A DNA stretch of 43,487 nt, from positions 1-43,487 of the forward strand of contig JAKQHK010000101.1 of the NCBI GenBank assembly GCA_029573015.1. The letters are read 5' to 3'. The position numbers and the translations under genes are program-made. Origin of the DNA: a bacterium. GTDB taxonomy: Bacteria; Patescibacteriota; CG2-30-54-11. Each line of letters starts with the position of its first letter. Position 1 is the stretch's first letter. Below, piece by piece: positions 514-32,840 of this stretch. The notes beneath the pieces are model-generated. The model saw only the letters and a list, made by a program, of their open reading frames with translations. It searched no databases and was not told the origin of the DNA.

Positions 514-760
514 CTATATTTTCAATAATCTTTTGTGCATAAATGCTCGACCTGAACAAGTTTTTAAATATCGTTCAAAAGATAAGGCAAGCTCCTTGTC
601 ATCAAACGCAAAATAAGTTCTCAGTCTCCAAGGACGATATTTGCTAGTATAAACAGAATCGCCTTTATTATGTGCAGATACTCTCTGTAAAACATCCGTT
701 GTATAGCCAGTATAAACTTGCTCTGGATTCGCTATACTTTGAATGATATACCCAATACAT
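514..760 (-). pseudogene. Small GIY-YIG nuclease, frameshifted near the start
   Basis: Manual translation: ATG at 760 gives MYWVY. A shifted frame reads YIIQSIANPEQVYTGYTTDVLQRVSAHNKGDSVYTSKYRPWRLRTYFAFDDKELALSFERYLKTCSGRAFMHKRLLKI-stop (514). It has the VY..YTG, R..H and E.YLK motifs. Restoring 2 nt in the TATAT run joins the frames. Confidence 0.88.
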
Positions 761-28237: not shown

Positions 28238-28314
28238 GCCCCCTTAGCTCAACTGGATAGAGTACCTGGCTTCGAACCAGATGGTTGGGGGTTCAAATCC
28301 TCCAGGGGGCACCA
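28238..28314 (+). tRNA. tRNA-Arg (UCG)
   Basis: GCCCCCTTAGCTCAACTGGATAGAGTACCTGGCTTCGAACCAGATGGTTGGGGGTTCAAATCCTCCAGGGGGCACCA; anticodon loop CTTCGAA, A20, CCA. Confidence 0.95.
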
Positions 28315-28337
28315 CCGACAATACAAACGATTGGGAT

Positions 28338-28479
28338 CAACCCAACCCGTCAGATCCCGTGAGCGCAGCGAAGCGGGATTCAAATCCTCCAGGGGGCACC
28401 AATGATAACATTTTCGAATAAGACCAACTCAACCCGTCAGATCCCGTGAACAGCGTGAAGCGGGATTCAAATCCTCCAG
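28338..28479 (+). repeat. Two 87-nt-period units: hairpin plus duplicated tRNA-Arg(UCG) 3' end
   Basis: caacccgtcag-atcccgtga..gaagcgggat-tcaaatcctccag(ggggcacca); 28379-28401 is identical to the last 23 nt of the tRNA. Confidence 0.88.
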
Positions 28480-28824: not shown

Positions 28825-29408
28825 TGTTGCATCGACTCCGTACCGCCCTTACTGATCTTGATCGTATCACTGACGTTATCAGCATTGCCCGCCGCAATTT
28901 CGTCATGAATGCCTTTGATGGCGTTCTCACGATGACCGGAATCCTGGCTGGTTCCTACTTCGTCGGTATCGACGACCCCAAAATCGTGCTAGGAACCGGT
29001 TTCAGCACGGCGATAGCCATGGGCATATCCGGCATGTGGGGCGCCTTCCTGACTGAGCGTTCGGAGCGCCGACATGACATCAAGCAACTCGAACGGCACA
29101 CCCTTGCTGACCTGTCCGACTCTCATCTCGTTACCGCCTCGCATCAGGCTACCATAATCATAACCCTTGTGGGTCTTGCCCCGCTACTGGCAGCCCTGTC
29201 TGTGTTATCACCGTTTCTGTTCTCCTTCCTGTTCCCATCCATAACCATGATGTATTTCAGCTCACTGGCTCTCATCATACTTCTGCTGTTTAGCTTGGGG
29301 ACGTTCCTCGGAACCATTTCAAAAGAAAACATCCTGCTATCAGGCCTCCGTCTCTTGGCTGCTGGCATCATCTGTATCGGCATCCTGCTCATGATAGAAA
29401 CGTTATAG
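28824..29408 (+). CDS. VIT1/CCC1-like membrane protein
   Basis: RR.FV.N.FDG.LT..G, A.G.SG..GA.LTE..ER motifs; about 5 TMs; coupled to DUF211. Confidence 0.85.
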   Translation: MLHRLRTALTDLDRITDVISIARRNFVMNAFDGVLTMTGILAGSYFVGIDDPKIVLGTGFSTAIAMGISGMWGAFLTERSERRHDIKQLERHTLADLSDSHLVTASHQATIIITLVGLAPLLAALSVLSPFLFSFLFPSITMMYFSSLALIILLLFSLGTFLGTISKENILLSGLRLLAAGIICIGILLMIETL

Positions 29409-29441
29409 CGTTGACGCGTTATCAAATCTTATTCTTCCAAC

Positions 29442-29480
29442 AAAAAAAGAGCAGACTCGCAATATCGAGGCTGCTCTTTT
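29442..29480. terminator. Bidirectional terminator
   Basis: aaaaaaagagcag...ctgctctttt between convergent genes. Confidence 0.75.
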
Positions 29481-29505
29481 CATATGCTGAAATTTTGGGT
29501 ATGTC

Positions 29506-30690
29506 TTAAAAAACCGGCTTGGCGATAAAGATCAATTCGTGCGCGTAGTTACCCGAAGGCTGCAAATTATTCACCTCGAGCTGCAAGGTGATATTAGTAT
29601 AATCCTGGCCCTCGATATCACTTTGCGTTGCTTCATGATGATACAGAATTTCTTCTGATGTTGTGGTGAATCCGGCATATTTGGTAGCAGTAGCGAACCG
29701 ATTGGGACCATCCCCAACTGTATTCAATGTCGTATCGCTGGTGGTATAACCGAGAAACCCTGTATCAACCCCCAGCGTTGTTCCAGTCGGTGATGTCCAG
29801 TCTACCGGAGCATCATTAGTCCCAACCGCGACATTCTTGATTGGGTCAATATCAATTGTCGGGTCCACCGCATGCAGCATATTGGTATCCTGTTTGATGT
29901 AAACGGTGAAACCGTTCTGCGCATCAGTATTGACTTTGGCACGCATCACCGCGGTCTTGGCCACTCCCGGAGTGATTTCCCGCCATTCGATGAGGTTGGG
30001 GGCAATCACACCCCCATCCGGAGGGGTAATTCCGGATATCTCAAAGGTCATATGCGGTTTTTGTCCCGCATACTCCTCAACATGCTCAATCGTAGCAACG
30101 AGTAATTCAATCGTGTCGATTATCACACTGCTTCCGTCTGCAGAAGTTATATCCACAGACCATACATCTCCGGAGCCAATTGGATTTACTTTCGCCGGAT
30201 TGACGATCTGCTCTGCGCCCGTCACCCCGTACGTGGCTATAGTACCGATCTCTATGACAATCGCAGAATCTGCAGCCACAGTATCCGTATCGTTGTTTGT
30301 CAGAACTAGCGATCCGCTCGTGCCGCTCGTCACCGCCACGCCCCAGGCGCTTCCTGCTCCGCTGCCGGCTGAGGCAGCCAGAGGCACATCTGATCCGTTC
30401 AGCGAAAGATCACAATCTTCGTAATCCATAGCAACCGGGATCGTAAAATATGTCGCTTCCGGTTCGATCGTGATCGTCCCACCAGCTGGTATCGCCTGTT
30501 TGTTTGTCAGCGTGATTATCCAGTCGGATCCCGTAGCTGGTTTGGATTCAAGTAGTTCAACGCTCGCATCATAAAACTGCATTTGTACCGCATGCGCACC
30601 CCGGCTCGAGAGCAACACGACAGCAAAACAACCCATAACAGCCAAAGCAGATATTAGTGCCGTATGCAAACGGTATCGCGAATTCATCAT
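29506..30690 (-). CDS. Secreted beta-rich hypothetical protein
   Basis: Signal peptide (AHA cleavage site); T/S/G-rich; V.TDA..GF.VY motif and C-terminal Q.SG.Y...L.FIA.P.F typical of CPR surface proteins. Confidence 0.8.
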   Translation of the reverse strand: MMNSRYRLHTALISALAVMGCFAVVLLSSRGAHAVQMQFYDASVELLESKPATGSDWIITLTNKQAIPAGGTITIEPEATYFTIPVAMDYEDCDLSLNGSDVPLAASAGSGAGSAWGVAVTSGTSGSLVLTNNDTDTVAADSAIVIEIGTIATYGVTGAEQIVNPAKVNPIGSGDVWSVDITSADGSSVIIDTIELLVATIEHVEEYAGQKPHMTFEISGITPPDGGVIAPNLIEWREITPGVAKTAVMRAKVNTDAQNGFTVYIKQDTNMLHAVDPTIDIDPIKNVAVGTNDAPVDWTSPTGTTLGVDTGFLGYTTSDTTLNTVGDGPNRFATATKYAGFTTTSEEILYHHEATQSDIEGQDYTNITLQLEVNNLQPSGNYAHELIFIAKPVF

Positions 30691-30773
30691 GCGTTTATCC
30701 TGTATATACCTGTATAATCAGCCTTTCCCATAGTACCGCAAGTCAGAAGCGGTTGTCCAGCGCGCAAATACCC

Positions 30774-30802
30774 TTGCAGAGCCAGGACGGGATTGGTAAA
30801 AT
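30774..30802 (+). promoter_or_regulatory. Promoter of the tRNA-Lys locus (TTGCAG-N17-TAAAAT, with TG extension)
   Basis: ttgcag at 30774-30779 and taaaat at 30797-30802, 24 nt before the broken tRNA copy. Confidence 0.65.
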
Positions 30803-30826
30803 ACTGTTTGTCGCATAAATAGGCGC

Positions 30827-30942
30827 GGGTCGCTAGCTTCAGATCATTCGATCTGATAAACAATCGGTAGTTAGTTGCCTCTTAAGCAATTGGTTCAGGG
30901 TTTCCGGTCATCCGACCGGACCGGGTCGTATGACCCGGCGAG
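30827..30942 (+). pseudogene. Interrupted, 3'-truncated copy of tRNA-Lys with two hairpin inserts
   Basis: gggtcgctagct[tcagatcattcgatctgataaa]caatcggtagttagttgcctcttaagcaattggttcagggtt[tccggtcatccgaccgga ccgggtcgtatgacccgg]cgag. Confidence 0.9.
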
Positions 30943-30972
30943 TTATGTTTAATAACCCACTATGCTGTCTCA

Positions 30973-31254
30973 ATGTATTACGTCTATTTTCTACTCCTCG
31001 CCAATGGCGACATATACAAAGGTTCGTGTTCTGATGTGCAACAACGTCTGATTGATCATCAAAACGGTCGTGTCAAATCCACCCAGCATTATCTGCCATT
31101 TCATCTTATCGGATACGAATGTTATTATTTAAAAAGTGATGCGCTGAGAAGAGAAAAATTCCTGAAAACAACAGAGGGGCGTCGTTTACTCAAACAGCAA
31201 TATAAGGATATAATTAATCATCTGACCGAAAATATTTCCCAAACGGGTCGCTAG
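30973..31254 (+). CDS. Small GIY-YIG nuclease (UPF0213/SLX1-like)
   Basis: MYYVYFL....G.IYKG...D...RL..H..G...ST..Y.P..L..YE......A..RE.FLKT..GR; its last codons and stop lie within the tRNA-Lys 5' end. Confidence 0.93.
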   Translation: MYYVYFLLLANGDIYKGSCSDVQQRLIDHQNGRVKSTQHYLPFHLIGYECYYLKSDALRREKFLKTTEGRRLLKQQYKDIINHLTENISQTGR

Positions 31255-31319
31255 CTCAATGGTAGAGCAGTTGCCTCTTAAGCAATTGGTTCAGGGTTCG
31301 AGCCCCTGGCGACCCACCA
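31245..31319 (+). tRNA. tRNA-Lys (CUU)
   Basis: GGGTCGCTAGCTCAATGGTAGAGCAGTTGCCTCTTAAGCAATTGGTTCAGGGTTCGAGCCCCTGGCGACCCACCA; anticodon CTT. Confidence 0.96.
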
Positions 31320-31344
31320 TATAGTCATTTTTTCCTGTTTGACA

Positions 31345-31779
31345 TCAGGGGCGAGAAGTAAGATCCCCTGCAATCCCGAAGCTCTGGGATGGAAGGGGAA
31401 GCCCCTGGTTTACCCGCCGAACCCTGAACGAAGTGAAGGGGAAGGCGGGCGACCCACCACAGATCTTAACGAATCGGCCAACGGACGATGAGTTTAGAAA
31501 TGTGGTGTACCGGATGATGTCAGATCAGCATCCGGTACAGAGCAAGAAAACGTTAGTATGCAAAGCGTTTCCACAGGATGGAAAATTTTTTTATCAGGGG
31601 CGAGACGTACAGCCCTGAGTATAGAGAAGAACAAGGTCCGCTGTAGTCAGCCAAAGGCTGACGGAAGCGGAAGCCCCTGGTTTACCCGCCGAACCCTGAA
31701 CGAAGTGAAGGGGAAGGCGGGCGACCCACCACAGATCTTAACGAATCGGCCAACGGACGATGAGTTTAGAGATGTGGTG
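31345..31779 (+). repeat. Two interrupted 3' copies of tRNA-Lys, including a 111-bp direct repeat (31397-31507 and 31669-31779, 1 mismatch)
   Basis: tcaggggcgag[variable hairpin..gaag]cccctgg[tttacccgcc..ggcggg]cgacccacca at 31345-31459 and 31594-31731. Confidence 0.9.
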
Positions 31780-31835
31780 AATTGATTGACGCACCAGCGA
31801 CAACTAAAACTATATAAAACATCGGTTGTAAGCAG

Positions 31836-31863
31836 GCTCTTCCTCGTAGGAAGAGCTTTTTTT
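31836..31863 (+). terminator. Intrinsic terminator closing the tRNA-Lys locus
   Basis: gctcttcct-cgt-aggaagagc-ttttttt. Confidence 0.8.
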
Positions 31864-32041
31864 GACTTGCGATAATCGCCCCCAGTACTGATAGACTAGG
31901 TATGCAATATGACGGCACAAACTGCTAAAACATTATATTGCCTCGAACATCTGATCAGCGCACACTGCTAACGCTTAACTATATACCGCTAGCACCAGCA
32001 ACACTAGGTCGAATAATAATCTTTCATATAAAGGCATCTTG

Positions 32042-32317
32042 ATGTCGGATTTAACCGAAGACAAAACAGAGTTAGCTATACAAGCGGTGAGACTTGTAAA
32101 TGAGATTCGAGAAAAAATGAACGAACCCGGAGCTGATAAACTTGCATTATGCCAAGATATTATCAACGCTATGAAAAGATTACACCTGACCTTAGAGGAA
32201 CCGCTTGATCCGGCTTTTACAGAAGCATACAATGATTTACAAAACTTGAAATCATCATTGAAATGCGATGGATCTGACTGGCTTGCTTCATTAACGCAGG
32301 AAGCTTCTCGTGCATAA
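32042..32317 (+). CDS. Small hypothetical helical protein
   Basis: ATG ORF overlapping the start of the next gene by 8 nt. Confidence 0.55.
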   Translation: MSDLTEDKTELAIQAVRLVNEIREKMNEPGADKLALCQDIINAMKRLHLTLEEPLDPAFTEAYNDLQNLKSSLKCDGSDWLASLTQEASRA

Positions 32318-32840
32318 ATTAACCTGCTCCCTATTGATTATCTCCTTGATCTCCCTGCTGTCTGGCTGTACCTTTTTTGAAAAAAAGAGCAAAAAACCGG
32401 TTTATATCCGTATCAAAGCATCCGAGCACTACACAGAGGACATTAAGCTCGAGACCGGCGATGTCACCATAGAAGGCAATGCAGTAGTCACTGGCAGGAT
32501 CAGCATCGCCAACGGAAGTCTGACGATTGGCAATTCAGTCACCATGGAAGCGCCCGTCTCTATGGGCAATGGCACGGTCAATATCGGCAGCAATGGACAA
32601 TTCCTGCAAGCGGTCAGTGTTGATCGCGGCGACCTGCAGGCCAGCAATTCCAACTCTTTTCATGACATTACCGCGAGCCAAGGCAATGTGCGCCTTGGCA
32701 GCAACAACTCGGTATTTGGTGATATTGGCGCTCCGCAGGGCGAGGTCAGCATCGTTAACTCTAACTCGATCGAAGGGGACATCACCGCTTCCCGCTTCAC
32801 CCAGGGTGGCAATAACACGATCACCGGATCCCATCCGTAA
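32310..32840 (+). CDS. Lipoprotein with beta-solenoid (bactofilin/adhesin-like) repeats
   Basis: Lipobox LSGC; ~17-aa repeats of the form G.I....G.V.IG.N. Confidence 0.8.
   Translation: MHKLTCSLLIISLISLLSGCTFFEKKSKKPVYIRIKASEHYTEDIKLETGDVTIEGNAVVTGRISIANGSLTIGNSVTMEAPVSMGNGTVNIGSNGQFLQAVSVDRGDLQASNSNSFHDITASQGNVRLGSNNSVFGDIGAPQGEVSIVNSNSIEGDITASRFTQGGNNTITGSHP

Follow-up and report, generated by a model that had tools for sequence, protein, structure and literature searches.

How does a gene for a small nuclease come to lie between a broken and an intact copy of one and the same transfer RNA (tRNA) gene? The question is raised by a tRNA-Lys locus in a 43,487-nucleotide (nt) stretch of bacterial DNA, called the window throughout, which is contig C81 of genome bin G000 (1.35 Mb in 140 contigs, 68.6% complete, 50% G+C). 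The host is uncultured. Genomes of its phylum measure 0.5 to 2 Mb, and the phylum is Patescibacteria, since one of these genomes encodes a GIY-YIG protein (L008) identical to one of a Candidatus Doudnabacteria record (L119). At the locus, a promoter is followed by a hairpin-interrupted 5' copy of tRNA-Lys, an open reading frame (ORF) for a GIY-YIG protein of 93 amino acids, an intact tRNA-Lys(CTT), two interrupted 3' copies, and one terminator. We propose, with a probability of roughly 0.78, that this is a selfish homing-type cassette, in which a minimal stand-alone GIY-YIG endonuclease gene entered tRNA-Lys(CTT) at the DNA coding for the T-loop. Since a complete tRNA-Lys was rebuilt directly after the ORF, the essential tRNA was not lost.

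The tRNA-Lys locus and its counterparts in related genomes

The features that bear on this proposal are the following.

30774-30802 (+): resident tRNA-Lys promoter, TTGCAG (30774-30779), 17 nt, TAAAAT (30797-30802); read from the sequence and compared with genomes G001 and G003
30827-30942 (+): displaced 5' tRNA-Lys copy (tRNA positions 1-58) with three hairpins inside; exact matches
30839-30856 (+): single 18-nt hairpin unit, TCAGATC ATTC GATCTGA, at the D-arm position after AGCT; member of a hairpin family with loops ATYC/GRAT
30903-30938 (+): double hairpin of two 18-nt units in the T-loop, between GGGTT and CGAG, cores GTCATCCGAC and GTCGTATGAC; family motif match
30943-30972 (+): 30-nt spacer ahead of the ATG (10 to 25 nt in homologous loci), no obvious Shine-Dalgarno sequence
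30973-31254 (+): GIY-YIG nuclease ORF, 93 amino acids, overlapping the tRNA by 10 nt; Pfam PF01541, E 1.5e-10
31185-31214 (+): candidate internal promoter, TTTACT-N18-TATAAT, in the 3' end of the ORF, 30 nt before the intact tRNA; a 10/12 consensus match only
31245-31319 (+): intact tRNA-Lys(CTT), CCA encoded; ARAGORN, and Rfam tRNA at 70.2 bits
31834-31865 (+): intrinsic terminator, 11-bp stem (31834-31858) and then a T run; terminator scan

A sequence-only reading made earlier had listed the promoter, the broken copy, the GIY-YIG gene, the intact tRNA, the two 3' copies, and the terminator, and all were recovered where it placed them. Within the 5' copy, 30827-30838 is identical to tRNA positions 1 to 12 and 30873-30902 to positions 25 to 54 (30/30), so that the anticodon arm is intact; the hairpins sit at the insertion points AGCT^CA and GTT^CGAG given in that reading. 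The copy, which neither ARAGORN nor Rfam called as a tRNA, ends at 30942, 30 nt ahead of the nuclease ATG. Its double hairpin fits the motif of the family described below, with a shorter linker. At the other end of the ORF, the last 10 nt (GGGTCGCTAG) are tRNA positions 1 to 10 and the TAG stop is positions 8 to 10, again as had been read. The intact tRNA-Lys(CTT) is 93 to 99% identical to that of the same-family genomes G001 to G003. The terminator, rightly described as the one that closes the unit, was the sole terminator-like site in a scan of 30600-32100. Rfam searches for a ribozyme, an intron, or another RNA family at E values up to 5 over 30700-31900 returned only tRNA, plus two chance-level matches on the tRNA. 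At five homologous loci, Rfam gave tRNA matches and low-scoring hits far under each family's gathering score, with no ribozyme family; the hairpins were covered by no Rfam family at any of these six loci. A ribozyme, a split or permuted tRNA, and a group I intron were dropped as candidates on these searches.

The nuclease gene was missing at tRNA-Lys(CTT) in all three same-family genomes compared, G001 (locus L039), G002, and G003 (locus L038), and its presence is thus polymorphic among relatives. In G003, CTTGCAG-N17-TACAAT is followed after 34 nt by a single tRNA-Lys and a terminator, with neither ORF nor fragments. An identical TTGCAG-N17-TACAAT promoter lies 18 nt ahead of the ORF-less tRNA-Lys(CTT) of G001, which is accompanied by one spacer and a 3' tRNA-Lys copy, with 32 nt of the downstream flank repeated as well. 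In G002, a hairpin-bearing 5' fragment of 14 nt lies 74 nt ahead of tRNA-Lys, and there is no ORF. Because the same TTGCAG-N17-TAnAAT arrangement precedes tRNA-Lys in G001 and G003, 30774-30802 is the family's tRNA-Lys promoter, which by this comparison now drives the dead copy, with the ORF also lying between it and the intact tRNA. The sequence-only reading had predicted relatives with the promoter directly before a single tRNA-Lys, and G003 is such a relative; G001 likewise lacks the ORF. Comparison of these alleles supports the view that the nuclease gene was inserted, displacing the resident promoter from the tRNA, and that the insertion is tied to duplication of the 5' three-quarters of the tRNA. 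This is the manner of entry that had been suggested from the window, and it is also favored by 59 of 80 homologous loci with the same layout. Because G001 carries a 3' copy without a nuclease gene, the two 3' copies downstream represent a separate, ORF-independent element. That allele, with its spacer and 3' copy but no ORF, was also the ground for dropping, as the sole reading, the idea of a single split tRNA whose halves survive as the 5' copy and the 3' copies.

DNA of the window was found in activated-sludge metagenomes by a search of sequencing runs. One independent Logan contig of run X1, which is possibly the source sample of the bin, covers 29400-31672 with 0 differences, and this agreement disfavors an assembly artefact confined to the bin.

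Two layouts and a double hairpin at many tRNA genes

Homologous loci were gathered twice. The earlier set comprised G000 and 40 related genomes; 28 of these 41 genomes had a GIY-YIG match (1 to 10 matches each), and a same-strand tRNA was adjacent at 14 of the 29 loci fetched from relatives, often with partial copies. The larger set, obtained with a single-protein query and one genome scanned per species, holds 80 loci at 43 to 71% identity. Their hosts belong mostly to many lineages of Patescibacteria, and the others are bins labelled Kiritimatiellae, Verrucomicrobiota, Omnitrophota, Cloacimonadota, Victivallales, and Pseudomonadota. A same-strand tRNA was present within 200 nt at 74 of the 80 loci, and each of the 6 loci without a neighboring tRNA is shortened by a contig end. 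In all, 100 tRNAs were on the same strand as the ORF versus 6 on the opposite strand. The linked tRNAs are mostly Ser but also Lys, Arg, Gln, Tyr, Met, Pro, Gly, Leu, Cys, Thr, Asn, Glu, Ile, and Asp.

Two layouts account for this linkage. In the 5' layout (59/80 loci), a same-strand tRNA starts between -47 and +188 nt from the stop codon (median, about +7). A tRNA copy runs from position 1 to GGTTCG and is followed by a double hairpin of ~40 nt, AATCC(C), 10 to 25 nt, the ORF, 2 to 30 nt, and the intact tRNA. In the 3' layout (17/80; two loci have both arrangements), a same-strand tRNA ends no more than 200 nt ahead of the start codon: the intact tRNA is followed after -1 to 22 nt by the ORF and then by CG AATCC...CCA as a 3' copy. 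The partial copy therefore lies upstream of the ORF in the former layout and 6 to 21 nt past its stop in the latter, and in both GGTTCG-hairpins-AATCC is a T-loop split at TTCG^AA. The last codons of the 3'-layout ORF read through GGTTCG and both hairpins, giving the tail ...GSPRHPTGRPVE, with the TGA inside the second hairpin. At six such loci (L072, L079, L097, L062, L096, and L105), the C-terminal tail G-S-P-R-H-P-T-G-R-P-V-E is conserved; DNA hairpin structure and coding sequence overlap in this layout. As read from these loci, comparison showed that the architecture is widespread, at many different tRNA genes, and that a live copy of a tRNA always stands on one side of the ORF and a dead copy of that tRNA on the other.

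The closest homologues (66 to 71% identity) lie in different lineages, at tRNA-Ser(GCT), tRNA-Ser(TGA), tRNA-Lys(CTT), and one locus cut by a contig end. One of them, L049, encodes a protein 70% identical to that of the window and repeats the layout at tRNA-Lys(CTT), TAG overlap included; its dead and live tRNA copies differ in sequence and therefore have different origins. At another locus, L098, an intact tRNA-Arg(TCG) lies 6 nt ahead of the ORF, and a full-length second copy with hairpins in the D-loop and anticodon loop follows it; the ORF's TAG is positions 8 to 10 of this dead copy.

The hairpins of the T-loop form a family. Their cores read GTCATYCGAC in the first unit and GTCGRATGAC, the reverse complement, in the second, and each unit ends in CG. 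The strict pattern GGTTCG-[hp1][hp2]-AATCC occurred in 43 instances at 38 of the 80 loci, and variants with other spacing were present at further loci. In the alignment of the 43 instances (A2), 98.1% of 688 cells were paired, and 11 of 16 pairs had changes on both sides (108 cells); the search pattern constrained no more than the three inner pairs per stem, and the outer pairs hold most of the covariation. None of 500 shuffles reached any of these measures, and slid registers paired at no more than 43.5%. The inserts that the sequence-only reading saw in the broken copy are therefore neither incidental damage nor random decay but the dyad-symmetric double hairpin typical of the family, conserved at 38 or more of the 80 loci with strong covariation in its stems. 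Because G-U pairs are very rare in these stems, the constraint probably acts on DNA, palindromic on both strands, rather than on RNA. The CG..CG that flanks the hairpin units reads as a 2-nt duplication.

The 18-nt family as a whole (loops ATYC/GRAT) has 22 copies in G000 versus 0 to 3 in 10 shuffles. Single units were also found in the D-loop and anticodon loop of dead tRNA copies in other genomes. Elsewhere in G000 (C52:12437, C75:11376, C77:3435, C94:19685, and others), single 18-nt units interrupt other palindromes, terminator stems among them, exactly at their central CG, and each unit is flanked by CG at either end. The positions of these single-unit insertions suggest a general preference for the centers of palindromes.

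Partial tRNA copies have a textbook source in the integration of mobile elements; integrative elements that target tRNA genes make such copies and carry a replacement tRNA segment, according to the part of PMC9897764 available to us. The fragments might then be attL/attR-type scars of integrase-driven, tRNA-targeting islands, with the nuclease gene as passive cargo. One locus of G000 resembles what this would predict: on contig C3 (12214-13968, locus L003), tRNA-Ser(TGA) is followed by a 1.65-kb segment with a GIY-YIG gene and a second ORF of ~275 amino acids, closed by a repeat of the last 17 nt of the tRNA and ~70 nt of its downstream flank. We nevertheless regard this explanation as extremely unlikely. 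The Pfam hits of the ORFs that flank the window locus (29509-30690, 32039-32314, and 32310-32837) include no integrase family, and the element holds a single ORF. The inserted segments measure just about 80 to 450 bp, compared with 9 to 23 kb in the integrative elements; the breakpoints are in the T-loop; and both 5' and 3' copies occur, 5' duplications being as common as 3' ones. Unlike the cargo of a large island, the ORF abuts a tRNA by 0 to 30 nt in 80 independent loci.

The nuclease and a possible route of spread

The window protein matches the Pfam GIY-YIG family with 41.6 bits (cut-off, 22.6) over residues 1 to 70, as a single domain of its 93 amino acids; homologues are 73 to 131 amino acids long. 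Eight residues (Y5, Y15, G17, R25, H29, A57, E61, and K65) are invariant among 27 aligned homologues, and we take Y5, Y15, G17, R25, H29, and E61 to be the catalytic positions of the family (Tyr of GIY, Tyr-x-Gly of YIG, Arg, His/Tyr, and Glu). By sequence match to the PDB, the nearest solved structures are the UPF0213 proteins BH0048 (1zg2; E 6e-5) and EF2693 (1ywl; E 0.0022), both of the stand-alone Slx1-like group of bacteria. No NCBIfam equivalog was hit (TIGR01453, 16.7 bits versus a cut-off of 56; E 0.0057), and no match was found among 50,697 phage records.

A quick tree of 101 proteins over 89 columns left 62 of 97 inner branches unresolved, and just its two supported clades were used; 7 of the 80 loci, whose ORF is under 70 amino acids or interrupted by a stop codon, and 8 of the first 36 (L004, L005, L006, L007, L015, L017, L027, and L031) were left out. 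The window protein falls in a clade of 72 rows (96 by the Shimodaira-Hasegawa-like approximate likelihood ratio test [SH-aLRT]), of which 52 have the 5' layout, 13 the 3' layout, and 7 no tRNA, with layouts, tRNA identities, and host phyla interspersed. UPF0213-like relatives bearing G-x-G-A-K-Y-T, none with a tRNA neighbor, form a separate clade of 7 rows (SH-aLRT 99). Together, the alignments and the tree show a nuclease gene that is intact and, on an evolutionary scale, mobile. A structure model of two copies of the protein scored 0.81, compared with 0.00 for the best of 3 controls, with 100% contact agreement between runs and a partner predicted local distance difference test value of at least 90. 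Among proteins solved as pairs of one chain, 20 of 30 reached the mark, compared with 1 of 23 among those solved as single chains. The prediction supports formation of a homodimer.

A free-standing GIY-YIG nuclease gene among tRNA genes is also found in the tRNA cluster of phages T4 and T6, as segB, the nearest analogue known. According to the available text of PMC2330249, the SegB recognition site begins GGTTCRANTCC, many tRNA genes are cut with 2-nt 3' overhangs, and the gene is missing from related genomes and preferentially inherited. In the accessible part of PMC13096335, T6 SegB drives tandem amplification of a 718-bp unit of tRNA-Tyr and C-truncated segB, joined where the tRNA 5' end and the segB 3' end share microhomology, and segB co-localizes with tRNAs across phages. 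By analogy with T4 SegB, the nuclease of the window would act as a homodimer on the near-palindromic T-loop DNA GGTTCGAnTCC. It would make a 2-nt staggered cut at the central CG, and filling in of the overhang would give the CG..CG around each hairpin unit. Repair templated by a copy with the cassette, or a segmental duplication like that of SegB, could spread the ORF together with the tRNA and yield tRNA-ORF-tRNA, after which one tRNA copy would be free to be hit and to be kept as a dead homology arm. The double hairpin may destroy the recognition motif in the displaced copy or may itself be the binding site of the nuclease. The nuclease messenger RNA (mRNA) would probably come from the old tRNA promoter and end at the tRNA processing site, here with loss of the stop codon.

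Several points weigh against this proposal. The target, the cut site, and even DNA rather than RNA as the substrate are carried over to this clade by analogy. With the T-loop as target, the nuclease could still cleave the rebuilt tRNA and every other tRNA gene in the cell, and the model leaves self-immunity unexplained. The protein is not of the SegB/I-TevI type (TIGR01453 is far under its cut-off), and its 93 amino acids hold no second or DNA-binding domain. Over both exact stretches (12 and 30 nt), the 5' copy does not differ from the intact tRNA; since both copies resemble the family's native tRNA-Lys, there is no sign of foreign tRNA sequence having arrived with the ORF. Many tRNAs of G000 have 3' copies but no ORF, so that a nuclease gene in cis is not needed for fragments to form. 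Contigs of metagenome-assembled genomes could in principle mis-join repeats, although here the independent contig agrees. Finally, no empty allele or joint was seen in the Logan contigs of two activated-sludge DNA runs that hold the locus and cover parts of it exactly; rare variants are dropped from such contigs, and the absence is therefore no argument against mobility.

The small protein might instead serve the cell as an enzyme that acts in DNA repair or in the metabolism of tRNA or RNA, its gene simply being co-transcribed with tRNA genes, with the fragments due to unrelated recombination at tRNA genes. Its strict same-strand linkage to tRNAs and its conserved catalytic residues would fit such a role, and fragments do occur without ORFs. 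Bacterial stand-alone Slx1-like proteins are described in the available part of PMC1564403 as a minimal GIY-YIG variant without known function, and a fusion to a TrmH-like tRNA methyltransferase is noted there. The distribution of the gene makes this role very unlikely, however: the ORF is missing at the same tRNA gene in same-family genomes, its occurrence is patchy, with 1 to 10 copies per genome, and paralogues within a genome are 33 to 42% identical versus 70% for homologues in distant lineages at other tRNAs. Moreover, the ORF is always between an intact and a broken copy of the same tRNA, and one copy in the window is frameshifted.

The homing-type cassette differs from the systems closest to it. 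Proteins of the SegB/I-TevI type have a GIY-YIG domain and a C-terminal DNA-binding domain and measure about 200 to 250 amino acids, and SegB is a phage protein; that of the window is a single domain nearest to UPF0213 structures. Fungal mitochondria contain short mobile elements of two hairpins, and in Allomyces a GIY-YIG ORF is linked to a duplicated piece of the invaded gene; these elements differ in being mitochondrial, in lying in protein and ribosomal RNA genes, and in their hairpin sequences. The UPF0213 proteins share the single minimal domain (80 to 107 amino acids) and the catalytic residues, but their relatives form the 7-row clade without tRNA neighbors rather than the 72-row clade of tRNA-linked proteins, and the portion of PMC1564403 at hand reports no link to tRNA genes or mobility. 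In the window, it is a cellular tRNA gene that contains the ORF, and the insertion comes with a compensating partial duplication and a conserved double hairpin, neither of which appears in the available SegB text (PMC2330249, PMC13096335). As far as the accessible sources extend, what was already known is tRNA-linked GIY-YIG homing genes in phages and partial tRNA copies from integrative elements. The literature covered, which is incomplete, gave no account of minimal GIY-YIG genes in cellular tRNA genes with a two-layout duplication and a T-loop double hairpin.

A wider generalization is possible but tentative: the loci may represent a new, widespread class of cellular mobile elements, mainly of Patescibacteria. 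In this class, GIY-YIG dimers of 80 to 95 amino acids would home into the T-loop DNA of any tRNA gene, the tRNA would be kept by partial duplication in two permuted layouts, and a dyad-symmetric double hairpin (two 18-nt palindromic units, each with a CG duplication) would be left at the cut site.

Downstream modules, transcription, and implications

Between the intact tRNA and the terminator lie two further sets of modules.

31320-31399 (+): spacer element X with hairpin CAGGGGCGAGAAGTAAGATCCCCTG; related spacers at other tRNA 3' fragments
31400-31459 (+): first 3' copy, tRNA 57-65, a 39-nt hairpin insert, and tRNA 64-75; repeat comparison
31460-31507 (+): trailer hairpin "module A", its ACCA end paired with downstream TGTGGTG; ten genome copies with a common fold
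31593-31671 (+): second spacer element, X'; 17-nt repeat D4
31672-31779 (+): second 3' copy and second trailer hairpin (31732-31779); 120-nt direct repeat, 98% identical to 31388-31507

Each 3' copy (31400-31459 and 31672-31731) reads AGCCCCTGG, 39 nt, and GGCGACCCACCA. The spacer and 3'-copy modules are duplications in their own right, broadly similar to that of the cassette but lacking an ORF. Around the 31 tRNAs of G000, self-fragments of at least 10 nt within 2.5 kb numbered 52 on the same strand versus 6 on the opposite strand, which argues against chance. Most of these tRNAs have a copy of their own 3' end 60 to 400 nt downstream, and several have a 5' copy ahead of them. Spacers like X precede 3' fragments of tRNA-Arg(TCT), tRNA-Ser(GCT), and others, and also of tRNA-Lys in G001.

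G000 holds 7 GIY-YIG matches. Contig C60 repeats the layout of the window with a tRNA-Pro(TGG) 5' copy containing two D-loop hairpins, an ORF, and an intact tRNA, the TAA lying 8 nt ahead of the tRNA. The frameshifted gene of the window (517-760, -) stands between a tRNA-Arg(TCT) array and tRNA-His, with MYWVYHSK in one frame and the remaining domain in another; a 12-nt 5' copy of tRNA-His separates it from that tRNA. Two copies of the 3' end of tRNA-Arg(TCT) (1253-1329) lie after that tRNA (960-1150, -), the second broken by CCCCGAAGGGGG-type hairpins. At 28238-28470, tRNA-Arg(TCG) has 3'-end copies at +64 and +151 and then a DUF211 gene. Elsewhere, tRNA-Asn has three 3' copies in a 103-nt tandem and tRNA-Ala two at 96 nt.

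Two further element families accompany the fragments. The trailer hairpin (~48 nt) has ten copies in G000, after the CCA of tRNAs or of 3' copies (the two listed above and 8 on other contigs); nhmmer gave 4 confident copies, and structure-aware comparison gave all ten. Its fold has an outer stem between the ACCA end and downstream TGGTG, with conserved internal loops CGAA/UGAG and a conserved motif UUAGA. Neither window copy has an Rfam match; the hairpin could be a processing or trailer element. The spacers form a family of ~9 copies, all beside tRNAs (31344-31368, 31593-31616, and 1025-1206 [-] in the window; contigs C22, C113, and C91), one of its members standing after tRNA-Lys in G001. 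Members start with the hairpin GGGRYGAGAAGnnnnTCCY and end in GGA just ahead of the tRNA 3' copy. The GAGAAG motif is not enriched genome-wide (34 hits versus ~21 expected).

On transcription of the nuclease gene, the sequence-only reading went further than the data support in holding that the gene rides the tRNA promoter, if this is meant as the sole promoter. The resident promoter matches the sigma-70 consensus at 8 of 12 positions, which is why a promoter scan did not list it, and the 10/12 match inside the 3' end of the ORF belongs to a class of sites enriched in homologues: among 50 homologous loci, a promoter score of at least 8 occurred in the 67 nt before the live tRNA in 30, compared with 9 of 50 control windows from the 5' part of the ORF, although A+T-rich codons may add to these scores. 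Read-through from the old promoter into the ORF and the tRNA remains plausible, because a single terminator closes the region. A run search found no RNA sequencing run holding the locus.

If the ORF and tRNA are co-transcribed, removal of the stop codon by RNase P at 31245, as proposed in the sequence-only reading, follows from the geometry: an ACG codon spans 31243-31245, and the TAG lies within the tRNA. A strong form of coupling would have a single transcript from the upstream promoter, on which the RNase P cut strips the last codons and the stop, so that the nuclease is made from unprocessed precursor alone; on processed transcripts, ribosomes would stall and the protein would be tagged by transfer-messenger RNA (tmRNA) and degraded. 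The genome has a tmRNA gene, and the stop is inside the tRNA at 16 of the 59 homologous 5'-type loci (5 with TAG at positions 8 to 10 and 11 elsewhere); in the first set, the TAG overlap occurred at 5 of 12 5'-type loci (L001, L008, L009, L019, and L030). We consider this form unlikely. At 43 of the 59 loci the stop is 2 to 188 nt ahead of the tRNA; with just 16 of 59 stops inside it, stop removal is not a conserved design. Those 16 fall at varied positions (-10 to -47) and resemble whichever stop is met first in frame beyond a recombination joint that varies; the available text of PMC13096335 describes a comparable SegB-deltaC/tRNA-Tyr junction, and the stronger promoter-like site is the one within the ORF. 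In a weaker form, the coupling would extend to most loci: in nearly all 5'-type loci the ORF ends no more than 30 nt from the tRNA 5' end, so that tRNA processing must set the 3' end of the mRNA if the two are co-transcribed.

The homing-type cassette gives a testable role to one large clade of the stand-alone minimal GIY-YIG proteins that are common in bacteria. If the wider generalization holds, this would be the first role assigned to stand-alone Slx1-like proteins of this fold, and no mobile or nuclease-made DNA insertion known so far would be smaller than the hairpin units. The nuclease is very small and its target may be a defined one, either T-loop DNA resembling TTCGAA or a hairpin structure with four arms, so that it may be of use as a tool; the tight junctions between ORF and tRNA offer a test case for the limits that tRNA processing sets on expression of a selfish gene. 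Homing of the SegB type at tRNA genes would then reach from T-even phages to cellular chromosomes across phyla. For the small-genome bacteria of this phylum, the cassette would explain the abundant tRNA fragments and hairpins around their tRNA genes, which bears on how tRNAs are annotated and assemblies judged.

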